In this document: piece after piece, positions 1 to 48,412 of the stretch | Position numbering within the stretch: the stretch's first letter is position 1 | Layout of the letters: each line of letters starts with the position of its first letter | Source of the DNA: Psammoneis japonica | Taxonomy: Eukaryota | DNA: 62,771 bases | NCBI GenBank assembly: GCA_008632985.1 | Contig: QPGO01000268.1 | Location: 1 to 62,771, forward strand | Reading direction: 5' to 3' | Program-made: the position numbers and the translations under genes | Notes under the pieces: generated by a model | Told to the model about the DNA's origin: nothing | Databases searched by the model: none | Seen by the model: only the letters and a program-made list of their open reading frames with translations

Positions 1-379
1 GTCGCACTGTACCGCATGGTCGACCAAAGCGCAGTCAATGCCTTGTGTCTGGAAGGATTTTTTTTAACATGAAAGCCGTTAAGGATATTCTCTTCACGTC
101 AGAGCTTTTTCACGCCATGCAGTTTGGTGTAGGTAGATGGCAGTGAATGCGTTGCGAACCTCCGTTGCGAACTCGAGAACCTAAGCCTACTACTGGAGGT
201 GGACGGAACGCGCGACATGTTGGTTTCGCGTCTTAACGGGGCGCAGAACAAGGAGAATTTCGAATGATGTGGTATGGTACATATTTCGATCTTACTAAGT
301 ACCATGTAGGTATATGCTTCTAAAACTTCGTTGCGCCTATTGCAAAGCAGATAATAGCCAAACTGAAAAGACCTCAGGC

Positions 380-2406
380 TCAAGCGGCACCGCTGCATTC
401 GGCATCAGCGCAGTGACGATATTCAGAATACGCAATCATTTCACTGGCAGCCTCTTTGCCGGCCAATGAATGCAGAAGCCCACGACCAAACAATTGCGCT
501 TCCTCATCGTATGGATGCTTTGTTACTCCACCCCAAACGCAATCAATAGCTCGCTGAAAGAGTTCCCTGTCTTCAACATTCCATTCAACCGCTTCCACAG
601 CGGATTCGAGTGTCACGCAGCCCTTCAAGTAGAGCCCCGCCGAGTCTTTGTAGAAGTCCATTGACGTCACCGTGCTCTCGATAATAGATGTTGAAATCTC
701 TTTGTGCTTTGCGCTGGCAAAACGATGAAGCAAGCTTAAAGCTGACTCTTGAATGTCCGTGACTTCTGCAAATTAATGCATCAAGTCAAGAAGGCTTTCA
801 AGTCCGCCGAGCTCAAGAATCTGCTCCGTGTAATCTCGTTCCTGACTCATACAAGCTAAGAGAATCCCGCAGAGGTCGCCGTAGAAAGCGGGAGGCTGAA
901 CAGTTTCTTTCATAGCATTGATGATACTTTCAAACAAACCAGCATCAACAAGGGTTTTGAAACTTCGTCACGAATGGCAGGAAGAAGAGCCTTGGCTGCT
1001 ATTCGCGCCTTAACCGGATTGCGAGACGGGTTTCGTACTTCCTCCAGTTGGGAGACTTGACGTGACAATGAAAGGTCGGAAATCATCTCCGTGGCTGCTC
1101 CAACACCTAACAATCCTTCCAGTACCAATTGACTGCTCTCGATTGCGATCTCGTTGATATTCCAAAGATTTGTGAGTCCGTAAGAAATGCAATCGATGCA
1201 CCGGGCGCTGGTATTGTTATCAACAGCATGGGAAAACCCCTGCAAGCAAAGCGCATCATGGAGTACGACTGTGCCTTGCAAAAACAGAATGTCTGAGTCT
1301 TGATGGCTCTCCATTGTCTTGAGCGAACTTTCAACAATGGTGCTTGTGATTGCTGCCCTCTTTGCGCAGAAAACGCCCAATAATCCCATGCCGGCTACTT
1401 GTACACCCTCGTCCGAAGGATATCGATTCATAAAACAAGTTACACCATCAAGTCCCTCGGCATCAAGGATTGCTTCAGTATAATCTCGACCCCTTTCATC
1501 ATGCATCATGAAGGTCGCGAGCATCTGGCAGACTCGATGGTAGACCACCGGAGTTTGTCCGTTCGCTTTCAAGACAGTAATGGCGGTCGCAAACACGCCT
1601 GCATCGATAAGAGAAGTAAACCAGCCCGCATCAAGTAACCTGATCAATACATTGAGAGCTTTGTCCGCCTCTTCGGCGCTGCAAGACGGACTACGGAGCA
1701 ATTCCGTTGCGGAACGTATGTCGGACAGTGCGGCGAACAACACAAGCAATATCGAAACTCTTTCTTGAGCATTTTCTTCCAAAATGTGTCTTGAGTTACC
1801 GTAGGTGATACAATTCTCGCATCTTTGGATGAAATGCTCATCACCAAGTCTCCTTTCCAGAAGAACCGCAGCTATGATTAGACCTCGGCAGCCCAAGGAA
1901 AAGACAAGGACGGAGTCTTTGTGCGTTTCCATCGCCTTGACTATGCTTTGAACGACGCTCCGGCAAATTTCTTCTGAAGTCTCTTGAGGGGAATCTTTCA
2001 TGAATACACGAAGAACAGCCACTCCAAGCATACAAATATCCTCGTCGGCGGCGCGCGAATCCATGATACCAACAATACCTTCGTGGCCGCCCATTGCGAG
2101 GATTGTTTCGGTGTAGCTCTTGTGTAAAAGTAGGCATTGGCTCATCGTCATGAGTAGAGCGAGGTAAAAACGAAAGGTTTGATCGTCGTGTTTCAAGGCA
2201 ATGACAATTGCTTCAAGTAGCCCGGATTCGACATACAACTCCATCGCGGCGTTGCCGTTCTCCCCGCGAATCGCTTTGTAAATGCCAATCGCCGCTTTTT
2301 CTGCCTCCTCGACACTCGAGGGACTACGGAGCTCCTCGGCCGTAGACTGGATCAACTGCGTCGAGGCGTCGGGAGGCGTGGTCATGATGATGTTTGATGG
2401 TGTCAT
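380..2406 (-). pseudogene. ARM/helical-repeat protein with three internal repeats; third repeat disrupted
   Basis: ORF 910-2427 (first ATG 2406) has repeats starting STAEELRSPSSVEEAEKA, SATELLRSPSCSAEEADKA and SQLEEVRNPSRNPVKA. The third repeat continues after a frameshift near 965 (FKTLVDAGLFESIINAMK..RDYTEQILELGGLE) and an in-frame TAA at 773-775 into ORF 380-733. It could be a truncated but functional gene. TpA content is normal. Confidence 0.6.
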
Positions 2407-2795
2407 TGTTCGATCGCCGCGACGCAAAAGTGCGACGCAGATTGAGATTGGATCGGGATGCGCGCCGTTGCGCGCGATTTTCAGCTCGTGACTTGGATGG
2501 TCGTGACTCGAGCTCTGACGCTCCGCATTGTTCGAACTCTTCGGTTCTTCAGAGAGGCGGGTTTACTGATCTGATCTGCTCTACGAGTGGGGACTAAAAT
2601 GGCTGTCGCAAGACTCTCTTAGTCTATTGGAAGTTGTCTTGGTCACATCGATGTAGCGAAGCCAGTATTACTGACAGCAATATAGCGTTGAGCTGCAACA
2701 TACCGTAAGAATTTTGAGCGAACTTTGATGGTGATTTGACTTATTCAATGATACAAAGCATTTTCTGTGCAATCATATATCCAACTCAATCCTCT

Positions 2796-3824
2796 CTATA
2801 GTAATACACAGTGAAAGATGGTGTGAGAAATGACTGGTCGGATTATACAAAGGGAAACAGACGATGTGTAGCGCTGTTTACCTCGAAAGCGCTGGTTGTC
2901 CCTGCGGCTATCTTTGCCCTCCTCAAGGTTTCCACTCAATGAAACCTTTTGTAAAAAGGGTAGAGTCGACAAGCCCATGAACCAATAATCTATATCAATG
3001 CCATTGCCTCGCAAATTCAATTCCTGCAAATACGAGAGTGAACACCACTCTTGAGCAAAGTAAGATCCATCATGCAAGCCATTGTTGGATAGATCAATGG
3101 CCGTAATGACATTGCAAATTTCATTCGATTTGCCCTTGCCTGAAAGAGCCAATTCATCTCGTGACTGGTGTGACTGAGTCAGCGGTGGTAGTTCGACACA
3201 TGCACAGGTGACGCCATACCACTCGCATTCATCAACCGACGGAGACAACCAATTCGTCGGAGTGTGCCATCTCGATCCATGGTAATGAAAATAAATGTTT
3301 GCTAGCGCATATCTCTCCATGATTCGATCCTTTTTTGAGACATGATTTATGTACAGAGTCCAGTGAGGTGCTTGCATGACTGGATCGTTGTCAAGGAGCG
3401 ACAAGTGTTGGGGGAAAATATCCGGTAGTACATCAGCGTGATGATCAATAGGCCACAGATTGCCTGTAACTTATAGGATATAGTCAAGTCTTTCCTGAGG
3501 TGTAACCAAGAATATATTTGGATATCTCGGTCGGGGAGGCTCCGTTGTAGAAGCTCCCCAAACGGTTTCTGTACAGATCTGCGCGCCAACATTCGGTGTC
3601 GTTGCGTTGAAGATTTCTTCATGAGTCGCCGTCAGCATAAAAATACCCGAGGCTACCAATACGACAAGAAACAATCGAATACAAAACATTGAAGGAGCCT
3701 CGTCGGTGTCTTCAAACCCTCCAATGTGAATGTTTTCATCGTCTTCATGACTCCTGTTGTCTTCTTCTGACGAGTCTTCGGAGGCGTTTCTCAGGTCATC
3801 ATGCAGCGCCATTGTCGAAAACAT
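2796..3824 (-). pseudogene. Diatom-type membrane-anchored LRR receptor-like protein with premature stop
   Basis: ORFs 3471-3869 and 2796-3404 are in the same frame, separated only by TAA at 3471-3473. Acidic N-terminus, TM helix (IRLFLVVLVASGIFML), LRR N-cap ERYALANIYF..WLSPSVDECEWYGVTC, LRRs ITAIDLSNNGL and LQELNLRGNGI. Confidence 0.7.
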
Positions 3825-4310
3825 TGAAGACGAGGCATCTGAGCGTGAGAGAAAAAGAAAAAATCTCAACGCACCAGTGAATAATCTCTACACCATGGAG
3901 ACTATTGCTGTTTGCAGATCAAGTTTTTGCAAATCTTCTGAACATTGAACTCCAGTGCGACAGCCAATTGATGGAGGACACAAATGATGAGACTTGCGCG
4001 CGCATGCGACATCCAACATGCGATGCGTGATTTGCTCGATGCCGCGGGGAATTTGATGGACTTTTGGCGCCAAATGCATGCACGCAATTGGTGGTTTGTT
4101 GTGGAGGGCCGCGTGATCAATGCAGGGTGTTGCAACAGAGTCTCATCTTGAACAAAGCACTGCACCAACATTTGGCTTGAGTTGGAACTTGCCGCACAAA
4201 ACACAGAGGCAGAGGTGGTGTGACACCGCAGCGAGCGAGTGCGTTGTAAAACAGGGACCGCGACTGTTCAAAAGTTCGCCTGGATCGTGGAGCATTGCAC
4301 ATTGATGCAT

Positions 4311-5310
4311 TCATTCACATGCGCACATCATGCACTTGCAAGTGACAGCGCCATTTTCAATAAAACCCAAATCATTGCCCTTTCCCTTTTGGACCGCCGA
4401 TGTTTGTTCTTGTGGTGCCGCCTGCAAGACCGGTTGTGGTTGCTGCTCGGCAGTCGCAGCAGCAGCAGCAGCAGGTTGTTGTTGTTGTTGTTGCGTGGGT
4501 GCTGGAGGATGTCCCGGTGGAGATGCACCCCAATGCCCATGGTGGGCTGCATGGTGGGGTGGTGGAGGAGGTGGGTGCAAGTGTTGTGGTGGTGCAACAG
4601 CAGCTCCAGGAGGCTGCTGTGGGGGGCTGGTGGCGACTGCTGCAAGAGGAGCAGGTGCTCCGCCTGCACCTGGTGTGCCAGCAGCTGCAGCAGTCGCAGT
4701 TGCACCAGGAGCAGCAGCTGCAGTTGGTGGAGCACACTGTTGTGGTGGCGGCGGTGCCATGTGCGGATGAGGCTGTGCTGGACAACATGCCGGCGGTCCT
4801 TGCGGTGGAACCCCTGCTTGTCCCGGTGGTGGTGGTGGTCCCGTGGCTGCCGCAGACAATCCAATGGGCTGCATGGCACAAAAGTTGGGCTCCGTGTCAG
4901 GATCACACTTGGCCTTGTTGGCAAGTCCCTTGACCTTGGTGCGCTTCATGTTGACGCACAATCCCGGGCGTCCCTTCAAGAACAATTTGTGGCAACAGCC
5001 GCCGTTGTCTGAGCCTTGACTGATGCGACAGAATTCTGAAAAAGAAAAAAAGCAAGTGAGTGTGAATGGTGTCAGTGCAAAAGACAGAGCAGCAACCACA
5101 ATGAAAACCAACAATGAGCAACAGTTGAAAAAAACACACCACATAAATTCAATTGTCGCTGAAAGGACGTGAGTCTTGTTTGTTGAAAAAACCATGGCAC
5201 AATCTCCGCCACAAACCGCCGTGGCTTGTGAATGGCAAAGGCCCATCCATGCGGAAAGAACGAAACCACGTCTGCCTTTCCCTGTTGTTTGGCAAACTCC
5301 AGGAACACTG
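4311..5310 (-). pseudogene. Heat-shock transcription factor (HSF DNA-binding domain), hypermutated and 5'-truncated copy
   Basis: ADVVSFFPHGWAFAIHKPRRFVAEIVPWFFQQTRLTSFQRQLNLCG, intron (about 5037-5137), then FCRISQGSDNGGCCHKLFLKGRPGLCVNMKRTKVKG..DPDTEPNFCAM. This matches the diatom HSF consensus SFQRQLNLYGF..GGYYHELFL..PNFY with Tyr>Cys. P/Q/A-rich tail with (gca)n/(gtt)n runs at 4456-4492. Confidence 0.85.
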
Positions 5311-5536
5311 ATGAAAATGTCGCCAACACAAAAAAATGCGACATTTTGCACCTTTGAGAGACATGTTGACACATTCTTTAATTGTCTTTGGTTCATTGTG
5401 ACTCAGTCAAATGACATGTGCTTGCCATTGTTTGCATGAGACTCCAACAATGTCGCCAAAATCTCCAACAGCACCCAAGCATTCAAGCTTCCTTCCTGTG
5501 TTAACATGCGAGTGTTGACAACAAGTTTTGGCAGAG

Positions 5537-5690
5537 GGAGACACATGGAGACAAACAGAGACAAACGGAGACACATGGAGACAAACGGAGACACATGGAG
5601 ACAAACGGAGACAAACAGAGACAGTGCATTGAGGAGACAAATGTGGAGACTTTTTAGCAAGAATTTGGAGACACAAACAGAGACATTCAT
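5537..5690. repeat. 10-bp minisatellite (ggagacacat / ggagacaaac / agagacaaac)
   Basis: About nine near-perfect units at 5537-5623 and degenerate units to about 5690. Confidence 0.9.
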
Positions 5691-6129
5691 TTGTGATTGT
5701 TCCATTGTAGAGATTGCAATTGTCAGCATGTTTGTCAAAACATGTGTGTTGCTTTTAAAGAAGACATTTTGATGACTGTCGACAAGACACATCATCGAAA
5801 AATCCAAAAAACACTGGGTTGATGATGAGTGCATCAAAAATGCCTCTACGGTGTGGGGATCTTACTTCACACCACACCAGTGCCGGGGCTGCTGCTGATC
5901 GGTCCGTTGAACATTGTGTTGGACATGACCTTCTCCAACGTCCATCCTCCCCTTCTCGGCAATCATCCATGTGGCGACAGCACCCTTGCCAGGAAGCAGG
6001 TTGCCATTCTCTTTGAAAGAGACTGCCTTGCAGTCGATCACAAAATTGTGTGCTGTGGAAAGAGTGTGATTGTCCAATCGCTCTGAATTCAAAAGGAAAA
6101 GAAGAAGAGCAAATTTGTGGCAAGTCTCA

Positions 6130-7020
6130 CAACAGCAATGAGAGCTTTGGACAGCTTGCAAGCAGTGTTGACCGAAACGAACCCAAGTGAGGTAAATTTC
6201 ATTGCCATCTTTGCTGAAGAAATTGATGTCGAAGTTGTCAAGCAATTGTGCCGAGCCCCTCTTTGATTGCAGCATTGCAACATTGGTTCAGATGGAATGG
6301 TCCATTTGTCTCAAGCCCTTTTGTTGCTCCCAATGCTGTCTCTCCTTGATGTAAGTGGCAACAAGATTGGGGACGACGGTGTCTAAACGGCATTGGCCCT
6401 GAGGGTGTAAAATCTTTGGGCAAAGTGCTGGAGCAGAACACAGAAATTGATGTGGCCCACCTTGCATGCAATGCAATTGGCTGTTGAAGTGCAGAATGCA
6501 TTGGAAAGATGTTGCCAAAAAATTGCAAACTGATGATGTTGTGGTTGACGAATTGTTGCACAGGGCCAAAGGGAGCCACAGGGAGCCATTGCAGTGGCCA
6601 GGAGCTTGAAAGAAAGCTCATCCATTGATGCTCTTTATCTTGACAACAACTGCATTGGAGATGGTGGCGCAAGAGCCCTTGGACAAATGCTTGTGCGAAA
6701 TGACAAAATCACGTGCGTGCGTGTGATGCGTGCCTCTTTTGGAGATGATGGGGAGGCGGCCCCAGTGGACGGCGTGAAGCAAAATGTGAGCGTCAATCCT
6801 CGCCTTTTATGGAATGGCATTTGTGAGGAGCTTGTGTCTGAGATTGAAAGGGACCGTGAGCTGTTGCGGCGCATTTTGCTGTTGTTGCATCGTGACTCCG
6901 TTCCCAACAGCATTTGGGCCAAGGTGTTGGCACTGGTTGGCGAAAACCCCAGCCTCTGTTGCCTTGTCATCAAGGCCAAACCTGAGCCAGTCAAGAAACA
7001 AACGGCACTCTCTTTACATG
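6130..7020 (+). pseudogene. RNI/NLRC3-like LRR protein pseudogene (same family as 47347-48255)
   Basis: LRRs LQHCNIGSDG, LLDVSGNKIGDDGV, NGIGPEGV, LYLDNNCIGDGGARALGQML. C-terminal SVPNSIWAKVLALVGENPSLCCLVIKAKP aligns with IPIGLWPLVLGRIKDRPSLIYFFLISKP. Contains stops and frameshifts. Confidence 0.75.
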
Positions 7021-7889
7021 ATGTTCAGAACAGCGGGTTGGCTCTGAATTCGAGGAGTGTGGGATGTGTGGCACATGAGACACAACCACAGTGTCACTTT
7101 GTTTTTGTTGTTTTCGCAAATGACCGACAACAATTTAGTAAAACAAACCACCTGTGTTTTTGTTTCCACCAAAGCCCACTCTTCGTACAGCACAGCTAGA
7201 CCAGTCTCTAGCAACCGACACTCTGTTCTTCCACGCGAACAAACCGACCTCTGAGTCGACTTGACTCATTGGCTTTGCGGCTTGTTGCAGGCATTCTATT
7301 TTTTGAATGCTCCCACAAGGCCTCTTGTTCACATGGAGTTGAAATGGTTGCTTTTCCAGTGAGACACTGCAACACACTGGCAGTTTGAAATGGAGACCAC
7401 AAGTGGGCCATGCGCAATCTAACCACACAATGGTGGAAACAAGGACAATTTTTAACAGCATTCTGATGGAGTGCACACTCTTGATCGTTTCTTGTAGATG
7501 GGTGCCTCCGGTTTCCCAAATCATTCTTCACATAAAAGAGATCAGAAACGCAGCTGATGCAACACGAACGCACCTTCTCCCTCTTTCCAGCGATGCAATC
7601 TCTACCTCCCATTCTTCTTCATTGCTCCTTGTTCAATCCATTCTGCACTTCAGCCTCTTGCAGTCAAGCTTCATTGTCTTTTTCTCAATGCTTGCACACA
7701 CTGGCCATGTGCTGATCCAACAGTTTGCACTGGACACATGCACAATTGGCAATGCTCTCACAGGCAACCCTTAGAGCGGCAAGAAAGAAACGACTCCAAA
7801 AGGTTGATCTCCTTCAACTCGACAATTCAACAGACACACCGGCATGCAGGTGACTTCTTCAATTGATCAACGAATCCATTCTTGGGATT

Positions 7890-8900
7890 CATTTCAGGTC
7901 CTTGAAGGAATCAACCATCACAGACTTCATTGTGTCTCGTGAGATGACCAGGCCGCCCTTCTTGCACTGAAGAGCGTGTTTCATTGCTAATTTGCATCCA
8001 CATCCATTGCAGTGCTCCGGGAGGTCAGGTGGAGCACAGTCACACCGCAGGAAGAGCACGTCACAGAACTCTTGGCATGAAAGTTTGGCGCCATTCAGTG
8101 TTGAAGGGCATGCTGAAAGCCACGCGCCAGTCTTGGTGCTGCGCTTGACAGCTCTGGTCTGGAGGTTGGGTGGGGTCCTGAGGATTGTTTTGAGGGTCTC
8201 CCCTTGCATCACAACTTTTTGATTGGCTGCTTCTTGCTTCACTTTTTGCACGGTGTCCTTGTGGGCTGCAGAGAAGAACTGGGAGTGGCTGCACAGTGAG
8301 TTGATCATGTGGGAACACATGAGAGTGCCTGCTCCACAGTTGTGAGCTGCGGACTCAGTTGGACAAGGGACAGACAGTCCCAAAAATTTGATTGGGAGGG
8401 CGGATGGGGCTGGTCTTGGGTCATCATCGGCTGGGGTCTCGCCTGCAATCTGCACCAGCGAACGACTTGCCACAGTCCTTCACTGCACGTTGGACATGTT
8501 GCCGCTGGTGTTGCAGGGACTTCTGCAGACCAGCACAGGCAGTCTGAGGTTGATGAATTGCAATTTTGGCATGTCTCTGGACAACCAAGGTCCACGACAC
8601 TTGGCTTTTTCTGCTGGCCATCAGTCGCGTGCATTGGTCTCTCCAATGAAGCCTCCGCAAGACAGTGGCTGCCAGACTTGATGGTAAAGCCTGGATCTCC
8701 AAAGCAGGCTCCAGCATTTTCCAGGTTGCGTTCTGGGACTGCTGGGATGTTCTTGGAGTTGTCGGCAGGGCAGCAGCTGTGTTTGGGGCTTTCAGCTTGG
8801 AGAGTGAGGAAAAATTCTCGCAGGGTGGTGAATTTCCCTGCTGCTGTGGAGTTGGAGTCATTGGCACACCAAGGCATGGGTGCATTTCACGGACCAGTGG
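7890..8900 (-). mobile_element. Degenerate non-LTR retrotransposon fragment (CRE/SLACS-like RT and Cys-His region)
   Basis: PWCAND (8857-8868, for YADD), ESPKHSCCP (GPKYGYYP-like), SGSHCLA (RYLG-like), KTGAWLSACPSTLNGAKLSCQEFCDVLFLRC..CNGCG..HALQCKKGGLV. Several frameshifts. Confidence 0.75.
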
Positions 8901-9398
8901 AAGAAGTCCTGGCCCGCATGCTGTGTTCGGATCTGCAAACAAGGGAGGGGATGCAAACCTGAAGCACACCAGAGGAAGCTGTGAAAGTGCAAGCAAAATC
9001 CATGCCCCAATCTTCAAGATCCCAGCACTCATTTTCTAATTTGTTCATTGAAATTCATGCAAAAATGTAGAATCTAAAGTGCACGATGTTTTGATGAAGA
9101 ATCTCACGTGGCATTGACACCCGACACCAACGCTCGAGATGGCAAAGAGATGCTGTTTGTGAACAAGCAAAACAGGAAGGTCTTTCACAAGCACAGAGAC
9201 AACAGTTCAAAGCTCGTTGGAAGATCGCAATCGACAGCACCAAAATGAAAAAGCTCAAAAACATCAAAACACAGTGAACACGCGCATCTCACACATCAAG
9301 GATGGACGGACGATGTTCTTCAGACGGCCGGTCGACGCACGGGCATCGATTTTCTGGGTTCGGCCGGGTTGTCATTGATGTGATCATACATCAACACC

Positions 9399-10024
9399 AT
9401 GATTGTCTACAAGTGCCACTTTGCCAGAGATGAAATGCTCTCCGATGCCTTCAAGCCTCATCCTGCTGTAGATGAAGAAGGTGACGAGGTTCCTGGATTG
9501 TTTGAGATTGATTCCACAAAGGTGAACAAGGTGCAGCATGCTTGTGTTTGGTCCTCTCTCTTTTGTTTCCTTTTGCGCAAGTCAAAGCTCACAAACTCAA
9601 GAAAACTAAAATCAGGACTCTGGTGGCTCCGTTGACATTGGTTGTGGAAACGAATTTGGTGGAGGAGACGCTGATCTCGATGACGGGGCCGAGCTCGTCA
9701 ACAATGTTGTGGATGAAACGATTGGATTCGATTTGCACGAGATCCCCTTGAGAAAGAAGGATCTCAAAGAGCACTTGGGAGCACACTGCAAGGCACTTCG
9801 ATTGAAACTGAAGGAGGACGAAAATGTTCCGGGACCACAAGTCAAGGCTTTCACACAAGCCGCTCCAGTCTTTTGCAAGCATCTGCTCAGCATGCACTCG
9901 GAGCTTGAATTTTGTGCATCTGCCTCAATGGACCCCGACGGATCCATGGCCTTTGGACTGTGTGAGGAGTGCCAACCCCACTTTTGTTCACATCAAGGCC
10001 GGGCTTCTCGAAGAGAAGTGCTAG
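9399..10024 (+). pseudogene. TCTP: Translationally controlled tumour protein (TCTP), hypermutated intron-containing copy
   Basis: Exon 1 9399-9530 (MIVYKCHFARDEMLSDAF..), intron 9531-9615, exon 2 DSGGSVDIGCGNEFGG..VNNVVD..LKEHLGAHCK..LEFCASASMDPDGSMAFG, frameshift near 9965, ANPTFVHIKAGLLEEKC*. Positions normally Tyr are His/Cys. Confidence 0.9.
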
Positions 10025-10496
10025 ATTCACCCTTTCATTTCTCAGATTCATTTTTGATGCTGCAACACGGTTTCCTCTCGCATGACTTGCTGTGGTTTGG
10101 GTTTTCGGTTTTGTAAATGATGTGACTCGCGACTGTGAAAGACTTTTGCATGAATTCTGTTTCGACTGTTTGCCAATTCATGCCTGTCTTTTGCATGCAG
10201 AGAGCCAACATTTAGAATGCAGTCCTTTGCTTTGCTGGGAGAAAGCTAGAAGTTGTGCGTTGATCATGAAGAAGACTGCTTCATCCTGGAAAGGAACAAC
10301 ACCAGCTCACTCACAAGAAGTGCCCCAAACAATGCCAATGTTCAAGAGCATGTCAACGTTCGAAAGTCTTCAGAATCAACAGTCTGAAGTCAACAGGCAA
10401 CAGAATCTAATCCAGCTCGTAGAATTTACACCGGTCTGTCAATGGCAGCGAAGTTTTTTTTGCTCTTCAAAAATCTCGACACTGAAAACACTTGTC

Positions 10497-10561
10497 GAAA
10501 ATCGGCTTTCGTCACCCACTACATGACACCAAGTTGCAGTGGGTGACGAAAGCCGATTTTC
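10497..10561. repeat. 27-bp inverted repeat with 11-nt spacer
   Basis: gaaaatcggctttcgtcacccactaca (10497-10523) and tgcagtgggtgacgaaagccgattttc (10535-10561) are 26/27 complementary. Confidence 0.9.
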
Positions 10562-11799
10562 AATGTCGGCCATTGTGGAGGCTCCAGAACAACAGCAAAG
10601 TCTAGAAAAAAACTGTCCCTGAGTAATTTGTGCAGCATCCAAATCTGTGTGACCTTTCCGAACTCCGGATTAAATGTCATGTTTTTTATACATTAAATGA
10701 TGGAACACAAACACAAATGTTAATTGGGGACAATCGAACACAACAGTCATTTTTTCTTGAGCAGCCAACAAGTTTTCAATGAAAAACATTCGCTTTCTAG
10801 TCACCCCGACCGATGCAACATGCGTTGGACCTTGTTCAGCTCGTCACGAGCTTTAGATCGACACATGGGTTATGGGGTCTGCGAGGTCATCCTAAAAAAA
10901 CTTCTCAACCATTGACAGACTGTCGGCACCGAACAGGAACGCGACTCATTTAACGGCGGCTTTCAAGAAGTGCGTGCAAGCATCTTTTTTCCACTGGCTA
11001 GAGCACTGTAGCCTCTGCCGGTGCTGCAGAGTCTTTGCACTGCATCATCCAGTCCCGCGGCTGCCGGCACTTGCAACCCACCACTCAATGCGCACAAATT
11101 GTGCCGAGTGAGAACGCGAATTATTTGGTGGCTTTCTGCAGCATCATTTTTTAGTCCCGCGGTGCCGCGGAATCCCTTTGCTGATTCCCGGCAACCGCAT
11201 CAGCTGATCGATCAGCACCTCGATGGCGTGCAACAGCAATCCACAGCACTGGATCTGTCCAGAGAGGGTGCACAATGGACAGCAGTGTTTTTGCGCCATG
11301 GAAGTGGCAGCCAACAGAGGCACTGATTTGTTGTGACCATGTGCGACTTTCCCCCTTCAAGAAAGGAAGGTTGTTGAGTTGGCTGCAAACTCAGGAGCAA
11401 GGAGCGTCCCTGACTGTGGGCCTTTGGGTTCAATCCATGCAAGTTCTGGACCACCTGCGTGGCTCCAGCATCATGGTTGACTGCTCTCCCAGCTGCTTGG
11501 TTCCTTCCAACGTGCCTCCAGCCCCCTGACCAGCAGCCACCTCACTGAGCATCACCCCATCAAGTCATGCGCTGGCAGCAGCACTGCAGAAGTGCCCCAG
11601 CTCTAGGTGGGACCTCGCATCACTGAACTGTGACATCAACAATTTTTGGATCCTGCTGTGCATGCACACAACTGAGTGACTTTGGTGGAATTTTGCACCA
11701 TTTGCAGTGCAACTGTTCGGCAACCTGTTCAACAACATTCAATGTTTTCTTCTTCCGCGCCATTCAAAAATGCCTTGAGAGCGGTGCAGGGCAGGCAGA

Positions 11800-13400
11800 T
11801 TTTCAAAAACTTTGACTGTGGACAGGCACACATGCACTGCTGACTTGGCTGTTCATTGTTTGATGTTGAAGACAAAATTGTCCATTGACAAAATTGTCAC
11901 ACTGCAGGGCTTGCACATGGAGCTCTGTGGGCACAATGCCAAAAATGCCCCACCCAGGCAACTCAAGGGTGCATGGAGTCCATGAGACAAACCATGGCTG
12001 CAACCCCACCCCCTTGCTGTGGATTCACATTGTGCTGACACTGCACCCACTGCAGTCACTGTTGATGCTGTGACAACTGCCCACCCATCACTGCACACTT
12101 CAACTCTGATGTCCTAGAGCTCATCTCTTTGATCAAGTGCATTGTGGCCTGCATCTCTGTTCATCATCATGGGGCTCACTCCCACTCTGGTTGAGAGGGA
12201 GAATGCAAAGCCAAGAAGAAGAAGAAGAAGAATCTGCAGCACTTCCACTCCAGATGGAACCAAATGCAAGCTGGCCCTTGTTGCCCTTTCCTTTGTTGTT
12301 GCACTTCATTTGAGAGGCAACCAAAGCAAAAGCATGCGCTGTTGGGGCCAACTGAATCACAATTGGAGGCACCATGCTCTCTCCCATTGCCAAGGCTTGC
12401 CTTGCTTCTGCCACAAGATCCAAGACCACCTGCGCAGATTGTTGTCACTGTTCAAGGATGCCTTCCATGGAGCCAGCAGCAGTCATCACAAAATGGACCA
12501 CTTCTCCATCATTTGGGACTCTGGTGCCAGTGTCTTCATCTCCACATGCCATGCAGATTTCAATTGTCCCGCTGAAAAGCCTGCTTGGTCAACCCACCAT
12601 CAGCAAGGGTGCCAAGGTTGCAGGCACGGGGCACATTGTGCGGTCCTTCATTGACTGCACCAGCATGATCTGCACCATCAAGATTCCAGCCTGCCACACA
12701 CTGGATGCAAACATTCAACTGTTGAGTGCTGCAAGTCTTTTGAAGACATGCGACAAAGAGATGATCCAATTTGGCCCACAGTGCCCTGCCTTGGTTGGTG
12801 GCCCACATCCAGATGATGGAAACAATCCGACCAGCCCAACTGGCATCCTGTGTGCATCTCGAAGATCCCAGAAAATCAATTTTTGGATGCAGTTGCCCTT
12901 GCTGCCACACTCACCACCACATCCAAGCACAACAGCAAATCAATGTGTCAATGATTGCCAATGGAAAAAGGGCATTTGTGCAAGTGCACAAACACATCCA
13001 TGGTTGAAGTGCGTTGCATTTCTTGCTTGACCAGGTGCACTCTTCAGACATTGAAGAACACTCCTGGCACATTGTTGTGTCCCCTGCAAATGTCTTGCAT
13101 GAGAAGTTCTCTTGTGCTTGGCAAAACAAGGAGTTTGAAACAATTCTTTGGAAGAGAACAAGTGGAAAAGCATGTGCAACAATGCACATGACAAATGACA
13201 AAAAACAATTGTGCCATGCTGGCTTTTGCAAGGCCCAGCTTCTCATGAGAACTGGAGCACTGGCACACTCTGAGAGCACCCGCTGTCTCCAGATGGCCAC
13301 CTGCAAGATGATGAAAGGGGTCCCACATGTGTGCCAAGTGCCAGCGCAAAACAATGTTGCTGTCCCAGCCAAGGCAAGTTGTTGAATGTTGCACGCAATT
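11800..13400 (+). mobile_element. Heavily degenerate Ty1/copia (CoDi-like) remnant: protease and GAG-pre-integrase
   Basis: FSIIWDSGASVFIS (aspartic protease DSG, about 12500-12540), AKVAGTGHIVRSFID..TIKIPACH..IQLLS, LCHAGFCKAQLLMRTGALAHSESTR (pre-integrase). Frameshifted, boundaries approximate. Confidence 0.65.
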
Positions 13401-14539
13401 GACAGGGATGAAACATTCATGGCATTGATGGTTTGGCGGGCATCTTAAAGACAGGCTGCAGATTTTGGGGCTTTCCCACTGCTCAGATCTCCCACAAACA
13501 CTCAGGCATTCCTGTCAAATGGAGAGGGCGCCACACCCACTGGCACCATGTGTTGTGCTGTGTGGTGATGAATGGATGTGCTTTGTGCCTGGGTGATCTG
13601 CCTGAGCATTGGGCTCCTCAGCCAGGCTCTTGTTTTGCAGTTGCTCACAGGTCCACTTGGTGCCTGTGCTGTTGAAGGTGTGAATGCTGCTGGGGGGCAA
13701 TGTGATCATGAAAAAATTGTGCTGGCATTGAATTTTTTTTTTGCCAAACCTTTTCTCTCTGGTGTTTGACAACTTTGACTGGGAGAGGGAAAGCACACAG
13801 CGCCACCTTGTCAGTGACAGCAGTGTTGACAATTCCAACAAGAAAGCACCCTGTTGTGCATCCAGAATTGGGAATTTGCTGAGGAATCACCTCCAAGCAC
13901 AGAGAGTCGCAACGTCGGAAAACTTGGTCACACTGTCCGTCCATCACCAGGCATCAGAGGTCAAAATCTGCGGCGATGCTCTTTTCGATTCACAAGGCCA
14001 GTGGCGGCTGTCTCAAAACCAAGCTTCAAGCTGCTAGAGAGTAGAACCGATCGTCATCTCCAAGTTGTCTCCCACGCTCAGCATGTCAAACACAACTGTG
14101 GGGAAACATGTCTGTCCACTGTGCCCCCATTCCGGCATCAACACATCGAGGTGTGCTGTCGACACCAAGGTGGCATGCGTGCATCGCAGTCTCTGGACCA
14201 GGCACTTTCCAAGAGGAGACTAGACAAGTGTGTCACAGGTTCATCATCAACATGGATGATCAGGGAAATCTGTTTGACGACATGGAATCAGAGCGGATTC
14301 CCACGTTTGCAGAAGCGCAGAGAACTGAGCACCAGGAACAACAATGGAACGACTTGCTCTTGTCTTGGAACAGAAGCAAGAAGACAACAGTTCAACAAGA
14401 TTCAGATGCCGAGGACTCTGACGATGAAGGTCTTTCAGGCTTGTGTGATGCTGAAGCATCTTCTTGGATTGCCAAACTCGAAAAGCATGACTCTGCAGAA
14501 GGGCCAAGGAATTGCGAAAACTCCGAAGTTACGCCCATC

Positions 14540-15200
14540 AACGCCACTCTAGCATGACGTGGACAAGCACAACTGCGACGAGTCCTGTGAGCCTGCAGCA
14601 CACACATGACACCAAGGTGAGGCATTGTCAAGGAATGAATTTCATTGCTGCCACTTTTTTCACCTTCATGTGCGAAGATGAAGCACTGTGGTTGTTGGCT
14701 GGCATGTCAGTTTTTGTTGGCATTTGCTCTTTTTCCGATGCATTGTTTCTTGCCATTTTTGTTCCTTCTCAAACCGCAGCCACTGTGAATGATCCACCCA
14801 ACCAGATGTGAGGAATGTTCGGCAGGGATGTGCAAGCAGCGCACCAGGTGTTGTGTGTGGCTGACAAACATTTTCATCAGCTTCTACTTCGTCTTGCCCG
14901 GCATTTGGAGAAGGAGAACGTCTACATCATCACATGTGCAACGCAATGGTCGTTGACATTGTACACGAGCTCTTTTCACCTTGATTTAGTGAGTCGCGTG
15001 TGATTTTGTATTCTTGCCGAGGGATGGAAGGTCATCTGCCGCATCATGCTAGCGCTCATGACATGTTCCAACAAACCTTGGAGACGCTTTAGCTTCGAAG
15101 ACATTTTGGCTTGCCTTCACCATCTTTCCGATGTGGTTTCCAGTGAGAAATAAAATCTCAATCGCAAACACACTGCCAGGCATGAGAAGGAGTGGGTGAC
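14540..15200 (+). pseudogene. Rab-GAP TBC-domain gene, C-terminal half, hypermutated
   Basis: HDTKVRHCQGMNFIAATFFTFMCEDEALWLL (GYCQGMNF motif), intron about 14702-14779, LARHLEKENVYIITCATQWSLTLYTSSFHLDLVSRV, LAEGWKVICRIMLAL, FEDILAC..RKHTARHEKEW. Contains stops and frameshifts. Confidence 0.8.
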
Positions 15201-15735
15201 GAATGATGCGGTCCTCAATTCGATCCATTCGTCTCACGGCAGCATTTTGACGCAATCAAGGCCAGCTTCAAAGACATGCTCGAGAATTCTGGGGGTGTGA
15301 TCCGCTTGGCACACAACTTGGAGCTGCCATGTGTGAGAAGGAGTGGGTGAAGATTGTGCGGTCCTCAATTTGACTCATTCGTCTCACTGCGGCATTTCAA
15401 CACGATCAAGGCCAGCTTCGAAGACATGCTCGAGAATTCTGGGGTGTGATCCGCTTGGCGCATTGCTTGGAGCTGCACTGGGTGAAGCACTTGGTGCTGG
15501 ACTCAAACTTGAAGAAATTTTGGCTCACTTTTGCCATCTTTCCAGTGTGATTTCCAGCGAGAAAATAAATCTCAAGCGCAAACACACTGCCATGTATGAG
15601 AAGGAGTGGGTGAAGATTGTGCGGTCCTCAATTCGATTCATTCATCTCACTGCATCTGCTGGACCCTGACACCTGCATGTCGACGCAAGATCAAGGCCAG
15701 CTTAAAAGAAATGCTCGAGAATTCTGATTGGAGAC
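15095..15735. repeat. Imperfect triplication of the TBC 3' end and downstream sequence
   Basis: Core gagaaggagtgggtga..gcggtcctcaatt..caaggccagctt..atgctcgagaattctg starts at about 15184, 15335 and 15598. The TBC coding part is duplicated at about 15097-15195 and 15511-15609. Confidence 0.85.
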
Positions 15736-15739
15736 TTGT

Positions 15740-16850
15740 TGTTCAGCTGCTGCCAGGTGCTGGACTTGCACTTGAAATCGTGGATGGACTGCTGGGCCCT
15801 GCTGCGCAGGTTCTGGCCTCTTGCTTGGTGTTGCCAATGGTGTTGCTTGGAGCAGGACTGGCACCAGGGGGTGATCCACTTGGTGCATCACTTGGAGCTG
15901 CACTGGGTGAAGCACTCCATGCTGGACTCAAACTTGGAGGCAGCATCATCTGCATTGGTGCGTCACTTGTTGCTGATCTTGCGCTGGGAGCATTGCTCGG
16001 TGTGGAATTCAGAGCAGGGCTTGCACTGCCAGGTGATCCACTTGGTGCATCGCCATGAGCTAGACCGCAACTTGGTGACACACTCAAAGCATCGCTTGGT
16101 GCTGGACTTGAACTTGTGCTGCTTGGTGCTGGACTTGTGCTGGGAGCATTGCTTGGTGCAGAACTCGGAGCATGACTTGAGCTCGGTGACTTGCTTGGCA
16201 CCGGACTGCTGCTTGGAGCTGCACTGGGTGCCTCACATGGCTCCGGACTTGAACTTGGAGGCACCGTTGTGTGCGTTGGTGCATCAGTTGGTGCTGGACT
16301 TGTGCTGGGAGCATTGCTTGGCGTGGAACTTGGAGCAGGACTTGCGCCAGGTGATTGACTCGGCGAATCACTTGGCGCCGAAGTGCTGCTTGGAGATGCA
16401 CTGGAAGTCTGCTCTGTGGAGGACTGCGACTCGGTGGTCGGGTGAACTCCAAGCAAGGCACCAACTCCTGCCAAGCCTCAGTCTAGCACCGAGTGACTCG
16501 CCCAACGAGTCTTGAAGCAGCAGCCCCATCCAACGCGAGTCACAAACGCGCGCGACCGGCCTCCAAGTGTGAGTCCTGCCAGCGAAACATCCAGTTCTGT
16601 CCTGAGCAGCAGCACTGCACCGCTGAGGGTTCTGAACTCGGAGATGAACTTGGTGCTGGACTTGCACTGGGAGAATTGCTTGGTGCCAAACTGGGAGCAC
16701 GGTCTGCACTTGGTGTTCCACTCGGGGCTTCACTTGGAGCAGGGCTGTTTGATGGAGCACTCCTTTCGTTTGATGTAAAGATTGAGCGCAAGGCCCAAGA
16801 ACATGCCAATGAGATGAGCAACAGAATTCCTGACGGCATTGTCTGCCGCA
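15740..16850 (-). pseudogene. Pro/Ser/Thr-rich (APSxxPS repeat) secreted or cell-surface protein remnants
   Basis: ORFs 16540-16926 (signal-like MPSGILLLISLACSWA, then APSNSPAPSEAPSGTPS) and 15743-16474 (SPSQSPGASPAPSSTPSNAPS). A further fragment lies at about 17380-17560. Disrupted and TpA-depleted. Confidence 0.6.
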
Positions 16851-18312
16851 TGCTTGCCAGAAAGAAAAAGAGCAGTGTGGTGTGAAAACAGAAACCATCA
16901 CATTTAAGTGCGCAATGACATCGCAAGTGCTGCGGCCGTCATCGCAGTCCATTGACGCACGCACAGAAAATGAACAACACACCAACAAAGATTGCTGTGC
17001 TGCACTTTTAGCATTTCTACTTCTATCGTAAAAGTTCAAAGCATGTTGCAAAAAATTGAAACACGCCAATGTCAAAAGCAGCTGTTAAAATCGGTTGCGC
17101 AGGATGACATTGCCTCAAAAGCGCCATCAGAAGATGGATCTAAAGCTTTTTCATGTCTTCAGGTGATGGGGATGGAGTGAAAAAGTGCAGCCTGAAAACA
17201 ACATACGAGAACAGATGCCTCAGTCAAAATGATGAGGAAAGAGATGGCTCGCGGTCCAGTGGCTCTTGGCAATGGCAAATCCCATCGAAGTGCATCTTTG
17301 GTCGATTCTCTGTTTCTTTCCTTGTGCATCTTACGAGATTCATCATTCATGTTCATCGTCACAGCACGAATTGCTTCCAAACATTGCTTGGTTCTGCTGA
17401 TGGTGCTTTTGATGGCACGTCACTGTGAGCTGCACTTGGCATTGCAGAGGGAAATGCCGAGGGCTCCGTCAAAGGGTTGGTCGTCACATCACCAGCTGGC
17501 CGAGTGGAAGGATCAGTCAATGGGACTTTGCTGATTGGCAAAATCGGGACAGCTGACAGGCAGGAGCAACGTTGACTCCAGGCCGGAGACACGCATTCGA
17601 CCGGCCTCCGGCCTCAACTGGCAACACCTGCGCCGCCGAGACAACACTTCGTGCAAGCAAATGAGTTGCATGACTGCCAAACAAGAGAAGACTTTCTATC
17701 ATCCAGAGGAAGGGCAAGCCATCCTCGGCGATCGCCTGCATTCCTGCTTGGCAAACAACAACACATCGTGCGAGACACGAGACGTCGAGTTGAATGTGAT
17801 CCAGAACGAAAACGAGCGCGAAAGAAGAAAGCTGCTTTCGGGGAGAAGTTGTGTCGTGACCGTTGCTAAATTTCTCAATCACTATCATTTTTGTGTAATA
17901 TTGTAGTATTAATACCATCATGTCGTATGTAGAACATGGGTCGGAAGTTGGTAGGCACTTTCAAAATGAAGTCATCGGGTCATCAGCTCAGTCTCTCCAC
18001 GTAAAACATGCGGAGAAAAGACAAAATTGATTAATCAACAGTATCCTGCTATTTATCACAGTCATTATCCCATCAGAAACAAATAACAACAGAATCCAAT
18101 TGAGGCAATGGTTCCTTGAATGTCATTTCGGGTCATAATGTCCATCAAAGTTGGTCACGATTTTTGGAAGCAAACTCAGGTCGAAATTATGCGCATCCTA
18201 CATGTTGTGTTGCTTCCCTTTCGAATCCATTACACCTACATGTTAATTAAAAGCATTTATACTTATTTTGTATCATTACATGCTCATCAGTGCCTCTGTT
18301 GTAAAAAACACA

Positions 18313-18810
18313 ATGCCCCCATCGTCACAACGCCGCGTCCGCTTCTCGAAATCTTCACCCCAGGTGCACCTTGTGCGAAATGTGGATGAGGCAGACTACG
18401 CCCAGGTGTGGTACAGAAAACCTGAAATGATTCAAACTCTTCAAGAGACAAAGGCTACTGTAAAGGCGCTGCGGAAAATCAAGCCCCGCGACTACCACTA
18501 CCCTCACGAAACCAACATGAGCGACGGTCGTGGTTTGGAAACATTTGTATCACCTCGCTTTCGAGACGAAATTATTCGCGAACGACGATTTCTGTACGAT
18601 TTGGTGTTTGCCGAGCAAAAACTTCAAAAGCTCGAGAGAAAATCGGACCCTTCCTCTATTGAGGTGCTGTCTGCCGAGTGCTCGAGATGGGCCAAAAACC
18701 GTGCTCTTGCATGTGCCGAGCAAGACGCAATCCAAGTTGCCGGCCCAATAAACGACAGAGGGTCGCAAAAGCAAAAGAGTTCCACCACCAACAATGCCAG
18801 AAGCGAATAA
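18313..18810 (+). CDS. Diatom-specific hypothetical protein (RRVRF..WY..RGLE family)
   Basis: Open 165-aa frame from ATG 18313 with RRVRFS, QVWYRKPEM, GRGLE, VFAEQ and SRWAKNRAL..AEQDA motifs typical of an expanded diatom family. Confidence 0.75.
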   Translation: MPPSSQRRVRFSKSSPQVHLVRNVDEADYAQVWYRKPEMIQTLQETKATVKALRKIKPRDYHYPHETNMSDGRGLETFVSPRFRDEIIRERRFLYDLVFAEQKLQKLERKSDPSSIEVLSAECSRWAKNRALACAEQDAIQVAGPINDRGSQKQKSSTTNNARSE

Positions 18811-33889: not shown

Positions 33890-35300
33890 CAAAAAAGCCC
33901 TTCCTTGCCATCTTGAACTTCAAAGGCAGCAGACCACATCAACACCACATTGGCTCTGGCAAAAGAAAGTTTGGCTGCGCCAATGCTTGGGTGCTTTGCC
34001 ATGAGACATTGCATCAAAGCATTGCATTGAATGGCAATTTCATTGGAGTTGATCTTTCTTGTTTGGTGCAGAAACAATCTGCATTGAAGATGCAGCATGG
34101 CGTGATTGCAGAAGGGATGCAACGTGCTGTGCAGCAACTCCAGCCACCACTTCTGCAGCACCACATCTGCCAATCAACAGGTTGGGTGTTTCACCACAGC
34201 AAGCAACAGTGCCTTGGCCCAATTGACAACAAGCAGTTTCAACTCCACCAGGTGCATCCACAAGAAACCATGCCAGAAGTGTCAAATGTGGCATGACTGC
34301 ATTGAAAAAGCTGTTGGAATCACAGACACCTGGCACAGGTGATGCATCGTTTCACTTGAGGGTTTTGTTTCAAACACTGCTTTGGCCCCTCTTTGGAAGC
34401 TTCACAAGATGGGAATGGCCAGCAAGTTTGGACAAACAGAAAAATCACAAGAAATGCATCTTGCATGCCATGGGATGCTGGTCAAAAAGATGTCAACAAA
34501 AAGCCAGTTGGTGCTGGCACAACTTGAGCTCACCTTTCCCACAGATTTGCTTGGATTGACAGCTGTTGAGCAAATCCCTGCCACCCCTGCTGCCATGGAG
34601 ACATGTCCCAATTCCCAATCCACCAGCTGAATCATTCTCCCCAGAAGACAACCTGAGCTCAAGAGCTGAGTGGCTTGTTTGAACAAGGCTGTGTTCTCAT
34701 CAAGAGCTGTCCCTTCCTGCCAAGAAGTGAAGCCCAGATTTGCAGGCCATCACTCTCTGCTTCTCATGCTGCTGCACTGTTTTCCACATTGCCAGCCCAT
34801 GATCTGACCTCACACTTGTTTGCTCAAGCCTCTGCTGTGTTCTTGTGGTTCTTGCAAGACTGCAAATCATTCACATGTGTTGTTTTCTTGTGCTTGAGAC
34901 TGGGCTCTATTTTGGCCGGCACATCATCTGCTGTGAAAGTGCTCAATTTTTTGTTCTCTTCTTTTTTGTGGCTTTGATTGTTTTGCAATGTTTTGGCGCT
35001 GGATCGTGCGCCCCAGCATCACATGACAACTCTCGCCAAGATGCAAAACAGACCACGCAAAGAGAGAAAAGGACAGAGGGCCCATGGGCAAAGAGAGCAA
35101 AGTCAGTGATGAAGCAACAACAGCCAAGAGATCATGGCCGCAGGTGCCAAAAATCAAAACTTGGAAAGCAACATGAGATTGGAAGCCACAATTGCCGGGT
35201 TTGTGCTTGTTGAGAAAAAAAAAACAAATCCAGCCACCAGTGCACTCCAGCCAATGTAGACAACCACCACCAATGAGATGGGCTTGGGTGCGCTCACACA
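33890..35300 (-). pseudogene. Hypermutated paralogue of the methyltransferase-like gene at 37522-38989
   Basis: ATQLLSSG..ELGHVSMAAGVAGICSTAVNPSKSVGK vs AIQFLNSG..GSGHVSMAMGMAGIQSTVVDPRESVGK, and CNALMQCLMAKHPSIGAAKLSFARANVVL vs YIDLLQYLMAKHPSIQASKLPFDGANVVL. Same intron position. The 5' limit is approximate. Confidence 0.85.
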
Positions 35301-38989: not shown

Positions 38990-39216
38990 GGTTAATAGTG
39001 TATAGAACAACTTCGCAACGTAATATGAGCAAACTCTTTATACAGTAGTTACGGAGTGGTACCTACTAGAGAGCACTGCGTCTCGCACGCCATGGTGGTG
39101 CGTCGTTTTTTGGTGCCAAAGTTGAATGTGCTTGACAAATTGAAAATCACCGGACGACGGTCATTACACGGTATGGTAGAGACTTTCAGTTAGTCCGGCC
39201 GTTCGCAGATCCCAAA

Positions 39217-48255: not shown

Positions 48256-48412
48256 GCAGGATAACACGCGTTTCCGCCTACAAAACAATCTCAAGTGCTT
48301 TCCAAAAGCCAGTTTCTTTATCCATACAAAATACAATAGAGCTTGAGTTTAATGCCTCTTCTTAACAGTTCTTCTCCATGCCGGTGTTGCATCTCGCTTT
48401 GTTATTATCGAT

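Follow-up and report, generated by a model that had tools for sequence, protein, structure and literature searches.

We found that a 14,186-bp block of Psammoneis japonica DNA (contig QPGO01000268.1 of GenBank assembly GCA_008632985.1) has lost most of its TpA dinucleotides. We analyzed positions 1 to 62,771 of this contig, referred to here as the window. TpA is almost gone in four stretches of the window, and the block, at positions 3681-17866, is the first of these. The block is an island that contains multi-copy repeats together with copies of host genes that have their native introns, and repeats and genes are equally affected. The change is derived, it is found on chromosomal DNA and on both strands, and it affects exons, introns, and spacers alike. 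Very probably, the block was rewritten in place, at the level of DNA and according to where it lies, by one process acting on TpA and another acting on CpG. An initial annotation, made from the sequence alone, had placed a mosaic of gene copies and transposon fragments at 3905-17865, close to the edges that we measured.

The edges, at approximately 3681 and 17866, were located from the positions of individual TA dinucleotides. To the left of the block TA is spaced at ~22 bp, the end of this dense series being the TA at position 3680, and dense TA is found again from 17867. The block itself has 97 TA, compared to 573 expected from the density in unaffected parts of the window (40.4 per kb). The depletion did not depend on what the DNA contains. 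In all 500-bp intervals from 3751 to 17251, the ratio of observed to expected TA (o/e) was at most 0.37, compared to about 0.5-0.7 in the flanks. The flanks have long open reading frames (ORFs) with Pfam domains, and the genes that adjoin the block are ordinary, with an LRR gene to its left and, to its right, a DOCK-like gene (DHR-2). That is, the depletion is confined to a bounded region.

The losses of TA and CG are matched by gains of CA and TG. Compared to the flanks, the block has less TA (6.8 vs 40.4 per kb, a fall of 33.6) and less CG (32.2 vs 58.0 per kb, a fall of 25.8), and it has more CA (99.6 vs 72.1 per kb, a rise of 27.5) and more TG (105.2 vs 72.4 per kb, a rise of 32.7). Together, TA and CG lost 59.4 per kb and CA and TG gained 60.2 per kb. 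This balance is the signature of changes from TA to TG or CA plus changes from CG to TG or CA, and not of an odd base composition. There were smaller shifts in AT (-10.2 per kb) and GC (+14.1 per kb), and these are neighbor effects expected from changes of TA in the context RTAY (R, purine; Y, pyrimidine). The two processes cancel each other with respect to GC content, and that of the block is still near 0.50 as a result. Calculated for 3905-17865, the o/e ratios were 0.11 for TA, 0.51 for CG, 1.64 for CA, and 1.66 for TG; the respective ratios in the left flank (1-3904) were 0.57, 1.07, 1.12, and 1.18.

The first process is restricted to the TpA dinucleotide, and a separate decay of CpG is also present. 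The loss of TA is ahead of that of CpG: measured against the density in the flanks, overall survival was 0.17 for TA and 0.56 for CpG. Over 28 intervals of the block, the o/e ratio of TA is correlated with that of CG (Spearman 0.53, p = 0.004). The most depleted part (11181-13680; TA o/e 0-0.04, CG 0.14-0.31) adjoins the least depleted part (10181-11180; TA o/e 0.24-0.39, CG 0.61-0.97), which suggests that pieces with different residence times lie side by side. At both edges of the block (3681-4250 and 17181-17866), TA o/e was 0.07-0.12 while that of CpG, at 0.72-0.91, was near normal, so that the TA-erased zone extends a few hundred bases past the CpG-depleted core. The flanking LRR gene has a possible start codon (Met at ~3689, minus strand) within ~10 bp of the left edge.

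Gene copies in the block (Table 1) indicate the direction of the changes. We scanned 107 stop-to-stop ORFs of at least 70 amino acids against Pfam, and compared the TCTP, HSF, and TBC copies to homologues by tblastn (80 TCTP, 10 HSF, and 44 TBC homologues). Off-frame duplicates were dropped, and we used columns in which at least 60% of at least six homologues agree. Conserved tyrosines were kept in only 2 of 18 columns; in the others, tyrosine was replaced by histidine (7), cysteine (8), or leucine (1). In contrast, 293 of the 377 conserved columns with other residues were unchanged (Fisher p = 1e-8 for the comparison to tyrosine). Conserved arginines were kept in 12 of 22 columns, and each of the 10 replacements (His, Cys, Gln, Trp, or stop) is a product of changing CGN to TGN or CAN.

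The TCTP copy is dead but complete. It has an ATG at 9399, a first exon at 9399-9530, a second exon from 9616, and a TAG stop codon at 10022-10024, with a frameshift near 9967. Pfam TCTP matches were found at 9384-9632 (+; E = 1.2e-4) and 9610-10113 (+; E = 1.8e-17). The copy has 4 TA in 626 nt, compared to 16-51 in each of eight intact environmental TCTP genes. At positions where the coding sequences of those eight genes have TA, the copy has CA or TG 93 times, and the reverse was found 0 times, with the eight comparisons sharing the one copy so that the counts are not independent. The same count among the 28 pairs of intact genes was 169:138. Sixteen residues of the TCTP copy are absent from all 10 homologues with which it was aligned, and the other 163 match at least one of them. 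Eleven of the 16 are explained by a single change of TA to TG or CA, several of which span codon borders; one is explained by a CpG change, three by some other single change, and one by no single change. The relatives of this protein are from diatoms, the best named match being from Cyclophora tenuis (74% identity; 80 matches at E ≤ 1e-5). P0001, which gave the best database match (79% identity), was considered as a possible parent and rejected. It has many differences that TA and CG changes do not explain, and is only a relative.

The TCTP copy contains an intron of 85 nt (9531-9615; GT..AG, phase 0), located between Lys44 and Asp45. We compared this site in 11 environmental TCTP loci from metagenomes, 10 of which span it. 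Five of the 10 (L003-L006 and L008) have an intron at the same site, two are intronless, and three are interrupted elsewhere; L003 and L004 may be duplicates of each other, as may L005 and L006. The presence of this intron in environmental loci indicates that it is native to the gene.

The HSF copy, on the minus strand, has similar changes. The HSF_DNA-bind match is at 5075-5377 (-; E = 5.8e-8). The exon encoding the DNA-binding domain ends at 5140, and the second exon (5035-4314) is followed by a stop codon at 4313-4311. Between them is an intron of 104 nt (5139-5036; GT..AG) with a polypyrimidine tract and no TA. It separates NLC(G/E) from FCRISQG, a place where the homologues are continuous, and its removal restores the reading frame. 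In the alignment with the 10 homologues, four invariant tyrosines are cysteine in the copy, and arginines have become Trp, Gln, or Cys by decay of CpG.

The TBC copy has Pfam matches to RabGAP-TBC at 14491-14808 (+; E = 5.7e-6) and to TBC at 14812-15003 (+; E = 1e-5). It is damaged by a frameshift near 14603 and by in-frame TGA codons at 14809 and 15002. Its intron (14702-14779, 78 nt) now has a GC donor, probably a GTA-type donor that underwent a change of TA to CA. These 78 nt are missing from one contig of sequencing run X2, and a contig of run X1 aligns into them. Where the TBC copy has TG and TG within 14777-14802, the 26 aligned letters of the X2 contig have TA and CG. A protein search with 14812-15000 did not find a parent (0 of 18 candidate proteins at E ≤ 0.001), and the search with TBC representatives found only distant relatives (44 matches, best E = 4e-9).

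The introns indicate that the gene copies were duplicated as DNA and are not retrocopies. The initial annotation had stated that HSF, TCTP, and TBC keep their introns, and this was correct: two of the introns have GT..AG ends, and the third is the segment missing from the X2 contig. We therefore dropped the possibility of processed pseudogenes. The peptides that it had listed as carrying tyrosine changes (KEHLGAHC, KHLLSMHSE, EFCAS, FVHIK, NLCG, GGCCH, and NFCA) are all present in the translations. The three introns together have 1 TA in 267 nt, compared to 17.8 expected from their base composition, and spacers, exons, and genes in opposite orientations are all depleted of TA. In addition, replacement by histidine (T to C on the coding strand) was about as frequent as replacement by cysteine (A to G), indicating that both strands were hit. 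The loss of TA from introns, the depletion in every interval, and the parity of His and Cys exclude selection on codons and editing of mature RNA. These results, and the 93:0 count for TCTP, agree with the proposal in the initial annotation that the mutation occurs on chromosomal DNA and affects gene copies that are not transposons.

A second depleted block in the window contains a copy whose counterpart is nearby in normal DNA. Positions 33944-34717 are a dead copy of a gene of no assigned function (37525-39037, -), which is 3.4 kb away. We compared 33944-34717 (inside) to 37565-38297 (outside); the two are 65.6% identical. There were 22 positions at which the inside copy has CA or TG and the outside copy has TA, and 0 of the reverse. 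Similarly, the inside copy has TG or CA where the outside copy has CG at 28 positions, with 2 of the reverse. None of eight tyrosines encoded outside was kept inside. As with the tyrosine replacements and the 93:0 count for TCTP, the changes at TA are A:T to G:C transitions. Only the inside copy was changed. This favors targeting by place over a RIP-like trigger (RIP, repeat-induced point mutation) that marks both copies of a duplication.

The bases flanking TA affected its survival. In the block, 7 of the 193 RTAY expected from the density in the flanks were present, compared to 45 of 284 RTAR and YTAY and 45 of 96 YTAR. The order was the same in the other three depleted stretches (0/61, 5/89, and 6/30; 0/37, 3/55, and 3/19; 4/99, 31/145, and 24/49). 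This fits a single favored target per strand, 5'-TAY, in which a pyrimidine follows the A; by arithmetic from the survival ratios, TAY is about four times as mutable as TAR. Products in the pair of copies described above were mostly as this rule predicts: RTAR gave CA five times and TG once, and YTAY gave TG four times and CA 0 times (9 of 10 in agreement). The contexts given for ADAR and for TadA/ADAT2 are 5'UAG and 5'ACG, respectively, in the table consulted (Table 1 of PMC10661471). By analogy, the preference for a 3' pyrimidine leans toward TadA/ADAT2 over ADAR.

Based on these results we infer that the block is a repeat-rich island, located between two ordinary genes, that would be marked in chromatin and methylated at CpG. 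Transposon pieces would have gathered there along with duplicates of four or more host genes (HSF, LRR, TCTP, TBC, and probably a Pro/Ser-rich gene), copied as DNA and not processed. After their arrival, the contents of the island were very probably rewritten as chromosomal DNA, through two processes that both produce transitions. The faster one would change TpA to TpG or CpA (A:T to G:C) on either strand, with a preference for 5'-TAY. It would convert Tyr codons to Cys or His and damage GTA-type splice donors, and it would make no stop codons and so leave long false ORFs. The slower one would be decay of CpG to TpG or CpA. Position in the island, and not duplication as such, would determine what is targeted. 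The chemistry may be deamination of adenine in DNA by a polynucleotide deaminase of the TadA/ADAT2 type, as proposed for Bigelowiella natans. We favor this type of enzyme tentatively, by analogy.

Several observations weigh against parts of this explanation. We found no parent of the TCTP copy from the same genome as DNA, and among the contig pieces listed there was none resembling a parent over the TCTP copy. Differences between the block and contigs from sequencing runs were only partly of the expected kind. Thirty-six differences in the block are among the 40 listed of a total of 1283 differing places. Twelve of the 36 were in the expected direction (6 TA and 6 CG), 21 were neither TA- nor CG-type, and 2 CpG and 0 TA differences were in the opposite direction. 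The sole indicator of methylation and chromatin state is the loss of CpG, and targeting to marked chromatin is likewise an extrapolation. The repeats in the block, moreover, may once have been duplicated, so that unique spacers leave room for past targeting based on homology. Finally, Tyr codons that follow a pyrimidine became Cys 6 times and His 2 times, and those that follow a purine became His 5 times and Cys 3 times; this difference is not significant alone. The context is equally well read as a change of T to C at 5'-RTA.

This last point is the basis of an alternative that concerns only the enzyme. Oxidized thymine mispairs with G. If an enzyme of the TET/JBP type oxidized T at 5'-RTA in marked chromatin, pairing of the product with G would give T to C changes, and the pattern in the sequence cannot distinguish these from A to G changes at TAY. 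According to PMC11572971, TA and TC dinucleotides of a dinoflagellate are the preferred sites of 5-hydroxymethyluracil (5hmU) in place of thymine, and a TET/JBP enzyme is tied to transposon silencing. Our analysis, however, provided no evidence for 5hmU or for a TET/JBP gene in this organism, and the authors of the B. natans work, in the text available, prefer an ADAT2-type deaminase. We regard the alternative as unlikely, albeit one to be taken seriously.

The initial annotation had suggested that the process would limit evolution by gene duplication as does RIP. RIP converts CpA to TpA, responds to homology by marking both members of a duplication, and creates stop codons; it depends on methyltransferases of the RID/DIM-2 type and takes place at a premeiotic stage. 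A RIP-like mutator would sense duplication, mutate the duplicated DNA, and police gene duplication throughout the genome. Most of the identifiable pieces of the block are indeed duplicates or repeats. But the direction of change is opposite to that of RIP, the depletion is unbroken over spacers and introns, and its edges do not follow the units. Contigs that resemble parents retain TA or CG where the copy in the block has TG. These contigs, ~80-90% alike, correspond to 4392-5036 (the tail of HSF), 8924-9199, 14391-15204 (TBC), and 17279-17634. Only the member inside a depleted block was changed in the pair of copies in the window (22:0 for TA and 28:2 for CG). We consider a RIP-like mutator very unlikely, and the suggestion that duplication as such is limited has no support in that form, as targeting seems to be positional.

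The initial annotation had also suggested, for the mosaic, capture of genes by a large DNA element or a duplication sink. In the first case the whole mosaic would be one mobile element (Helitron, Pack-type, or giant) that carries captured gene pieces and was mutated as a transposon. Consistent with this, gene pieces of mixed orientation are found next to transposon fragments. However, searches of 3000-18500 found 0 inverted repeats of at least 40 nt and no pair resembling long terminal repeats (LTRs), and the block has no match elsewhere in the window. The summed depth of contigs from run X1 was 70-100 in bins that carry genes, compared to hundreds to thousands in repeat bins. That is, the gene parts are matched by few contigs. 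In addition, the TCTP copy is whole, from ATG to stop, and is not a captured fragment. Capture by one element is therefore improbable in our estimation, and on the limited data at hand accumulation of duplicates in a repeat island, a duplication sink, fits better.

The remaining alternatives have very little chance of being correct. Editing of RNA from A to I by an ADAR-like enzyme, followed by reverse transcription and integration, would account for A to G changes beside a 5' U or T, a neighbor preference of ADAR (PMC10661471, consulted in part), but not for introns kept in three genes, strands hit equally (His 7 vs Cys 8), one continuous domain over spacers and oppositely oriented genes, or a favored 3' neighbor that is a pyrimidine and not G. 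Equally remote is the absence of any mutation process (with the odd composition due to a foreign source, to codon selection, or to an artefact of assembly or sequencing), for which there is nothing besides the unusual composition, and against which are diatom-type genes with native intron sites, genes broken by a frameshift and stops, changes polarized against homologues, and five X1 contigs that reproduce 6039 bases of the block without a difference, although X1 may be the sample from which the assembly was made and is then not independent. A foreign or viral origin of the block was dropped because its genes carry native diatom introns.

Table 1. Features of the first TA-depleted block, in window coordinates.
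Feature	Position	Strand	Basis
TA-erased domain	3681..17866	.	dinucleotide counts and TA positions
dead HSF copy	4311..5377	-	Pfam HSF_DNA-bind; alignment with 10 homologues
dead RNI-type LRR gene fragment with C-terminal tail	6549..7196	+	BLASTP
multi-copy repeat (family not confirmed)	7892..8479	-	contig depth
dead but complete TCTP copy	9399..10024	+	Pfam, sequence, alignment
repeat-derived DNA	10276..13179	.	summed X1 contig depth
dead TBC/RabGAP copy	14201..15210	+	Pfam, tblastn of 44 representatives, sequence
local tandem duplications of TBC 3' end	15097..15726	+	repeat search; second tblastn match at 15508-15630
internally repetitive Pro/Ser/Ala-rich ORFs	15746..17613	-	translations, repeat search

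The contents of the block are packed in mixed orientation, as first described, with HSF and the Pro/Ser-rich repeats on the minus strand and LRR, TCTP, and TBC on the plus strand. The family labels given to two other pieces, 'CRE-like RT' and 'Copia', were not confirmed. Both pieces are likely of transposon origin, because both are in DNA matched by many X1 contigs. The piece labeled 'CRE-like RT' is the multi-copy repeat at 7892-8479, and it is covered by 38 X1 contigs at position 8158. It had no Pfam match at E up to 5 and a weak lead in Atlas (scores 0.85-0.87) to clusters in which 20% of members have zf-RVT; it is possibly the C-terminal zinc-binding part of the ORF of a non-LTR retroelement. 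In most bins of the repeat-derived DNA, the summed X1 depth was 388-12676, compared to ~31 for the block's own contigs. An ORF in 12133-13027 (+) has a DSGAS-like protease motif, as read by eye. The 'Copia' region (~12.1-13.5 kb) had no Pfam match, tblastn with the copia ORFs of 55.8-62.5 kb did not match it, and 12356-13027 had no Atlas match. A 51-nt piece at 11597-11647 has matches to a great many contigs (bin depth of 12,676 in X1) and to one contig from a small run, X3, with loose ends on both sides. It had no Rfam match, nor did anything else in 3000-18500.

The LRR fragment is, judging from its sequence, a distant paralogue of an intact LRR gene in the window (47350-48348, -). The two are 29% identical over 148 amino acids (BLASTP, E = 5e-14), including the C-terminal tail of the family; the LRR_6 match of the fragment (E = 0.013) is under the Pfam cut-off. 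The parent-like contig over 17279-17634, at the end of the Pro/Ser-rich region, is from run X2. Just upstream of the HSF copy is a tandem array of a 10-nt unit (5522..5633; 8 overlapping register copies). Approximately 200 bp upstream of the TCTP copy, 8924-9199 is matched by the final 270 letters of a contig from run X2 (8354 letters in length), with 26 letters differing and 8 gaps. What was duplicated with TCTP may have included part of the neighbor of the parent locus.

Contig depth is a poor measure, and gives only a lead that one chromosome of a homologous pair carries the island, or carries it in this version. Over 3711-13986, depth was 31-38 for the five X1 contigs that had no difference from the block, compared to 55-67 for the contig of the adjoining flank and for the HSF and TBC contigs that resemble parents. 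The total X1 depth of the bin 12212-12695 was only 31.5.

The block has 135 ORFs of at least 60 amino acids, in all six frames, and these are explained by the loss of TAA and TAG stop codons. TAA and TAG together occur 4.8 times per kb per strand in the block and 15.8 times in normal DNA; the respective values for TGA are 21.8 and 19.0. Elsewhere in the window, a copia-type element (55803-62510, +) has two long open frames (878 and 1357 amino acids; RVT_2, E = 1e-31) and seems intact. It is not. Its reverse-transcriptase motif is HVDD, its products have 0.3-0.4% Tyr, 4.3-4.6% His, and 2.9-4.2% Cys, and its TA o/e is ~0.15 with CpG near normal. The frames are open even though the element is dead because changes of TA to TG or CA cannot make stop codons. 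Gene callers may annotate such long false ORFs in TA-erased DNA.

Diatoms are major primary producers, and their genomes have been shaped by copia-type elements. If the process described here is directed, then diatoms have a mutational means for killing mobile DNA. The block adds three things: the substrate is resident chromosomal DNA and not RNA or reverse-transcription intermediates; ordinary host genes in the domain are destroyed; and there is a measurable preference for three bases, 5'-TAY, that can be compared to candidate enzymes. The destruction of host genes indicates that the process is aimed by place. The cost is then on where duplicates land and not on duplication. One possibility, which we put forward cautiously, is a diatom genome defense in which a TadA/ADAT2-like or equivalent enzyme would be sent to marked domains and deaminate 5'-TAY, erasing Tyr codons and splice donors, including those of host duplicates, and leaving ORF-rich 'ghost' elements such as the copia-type element at 55.8-62.5 kb. 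Such a defense might be shared with Rhizaria and be old within the stramenopiles, alveolates, and Rhizaria (SAR).

Three known phenomena resemble what we observed in part. Ordinary pseudogenes decay with a balanced spectrum of changes. Like the unprocessed pseudogenes of repeat-rich heterochromatin, the genes in the block are intron-bearing, frameshifted, and stopped copies among transposon debris, but 11 of the 16 unmatched TCTP residues are of the TA type. ADAR and APOBEC editing of retroelements (PMC10661471, PMC4866542, and PMC5224506, each consulted in part) also produces clusters of deaminase-type transitions with a fixed neighbor preference and disables mobile elements. Those enzymes, in the accounts consulted, act on RNA or reverse-transcription intermediates with a strand bias, whereas here resident DNA, introns, spacers, and both strands were affected; ADAR favors a 3' G, and the process described here favors a 3' pyrimidine. 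RIP is described in Neurospora and other fungi (PMC7296669 and PMC3318451). It shares dense transitions on chromosomal DNA, inactivation of repeats, effects on duplicated genes, and islands of skewed dinucleotide content, and is the nearest textbook analogue in effect. It does not fit in its direction or in its dependence on duplication: here TpA is destroyed, only the copy in the island is hit, and no stop codons can be made.

In full-text searches of the literature, nothing described mutation that erases TpA in diatoms, and the only matching report was a 2026 preprint on B. natans (Mettrop et al., 10.64898/2026.01.13.699255). According to the text of the preprint available to us, the de novo mutations described in B. 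natans are almost exclusively A to G and T to C and occur only at TpA, in two viral regions that are integrated DNA of a nucleocytoplasmic large DNA virus (NCLDV) and a virophage. These regions are bounded and unlike host DNA, and an elevated de novo rate in mutation-accumulation lines is part of that description. Coding sequences that are poor in TpA and rich in CpA and TpG are enriched for transposon domains, and a homologue of ADAT2 is the proposed agent (10.64898/2026.01.13.699255). The block differs in that it is from a diatom-like stramenopile and not a chlorarachniophyte, and is a transposon island with intron-bearing copies of host genes and not a viral insert. It has CpG decay as well; the main text of the preprint, in the portion available, mentions neither CpG nor diatoms nor introns. 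The preference for a 3' pyrimidine measured here was not seen in that text and could be in its figures or supplements. The B. natans events are de novo, whereas ours are a long-term footprint. In both organisms, A to G and T to C changes convert TpA to TpG and CpA within bounded regions. None of the defining features that we tested was contradicted by the block, and we class it, as far as the available text of the preprint allows the comparison, as an instance of B. natans-type TpA hypermutation in another lineage.

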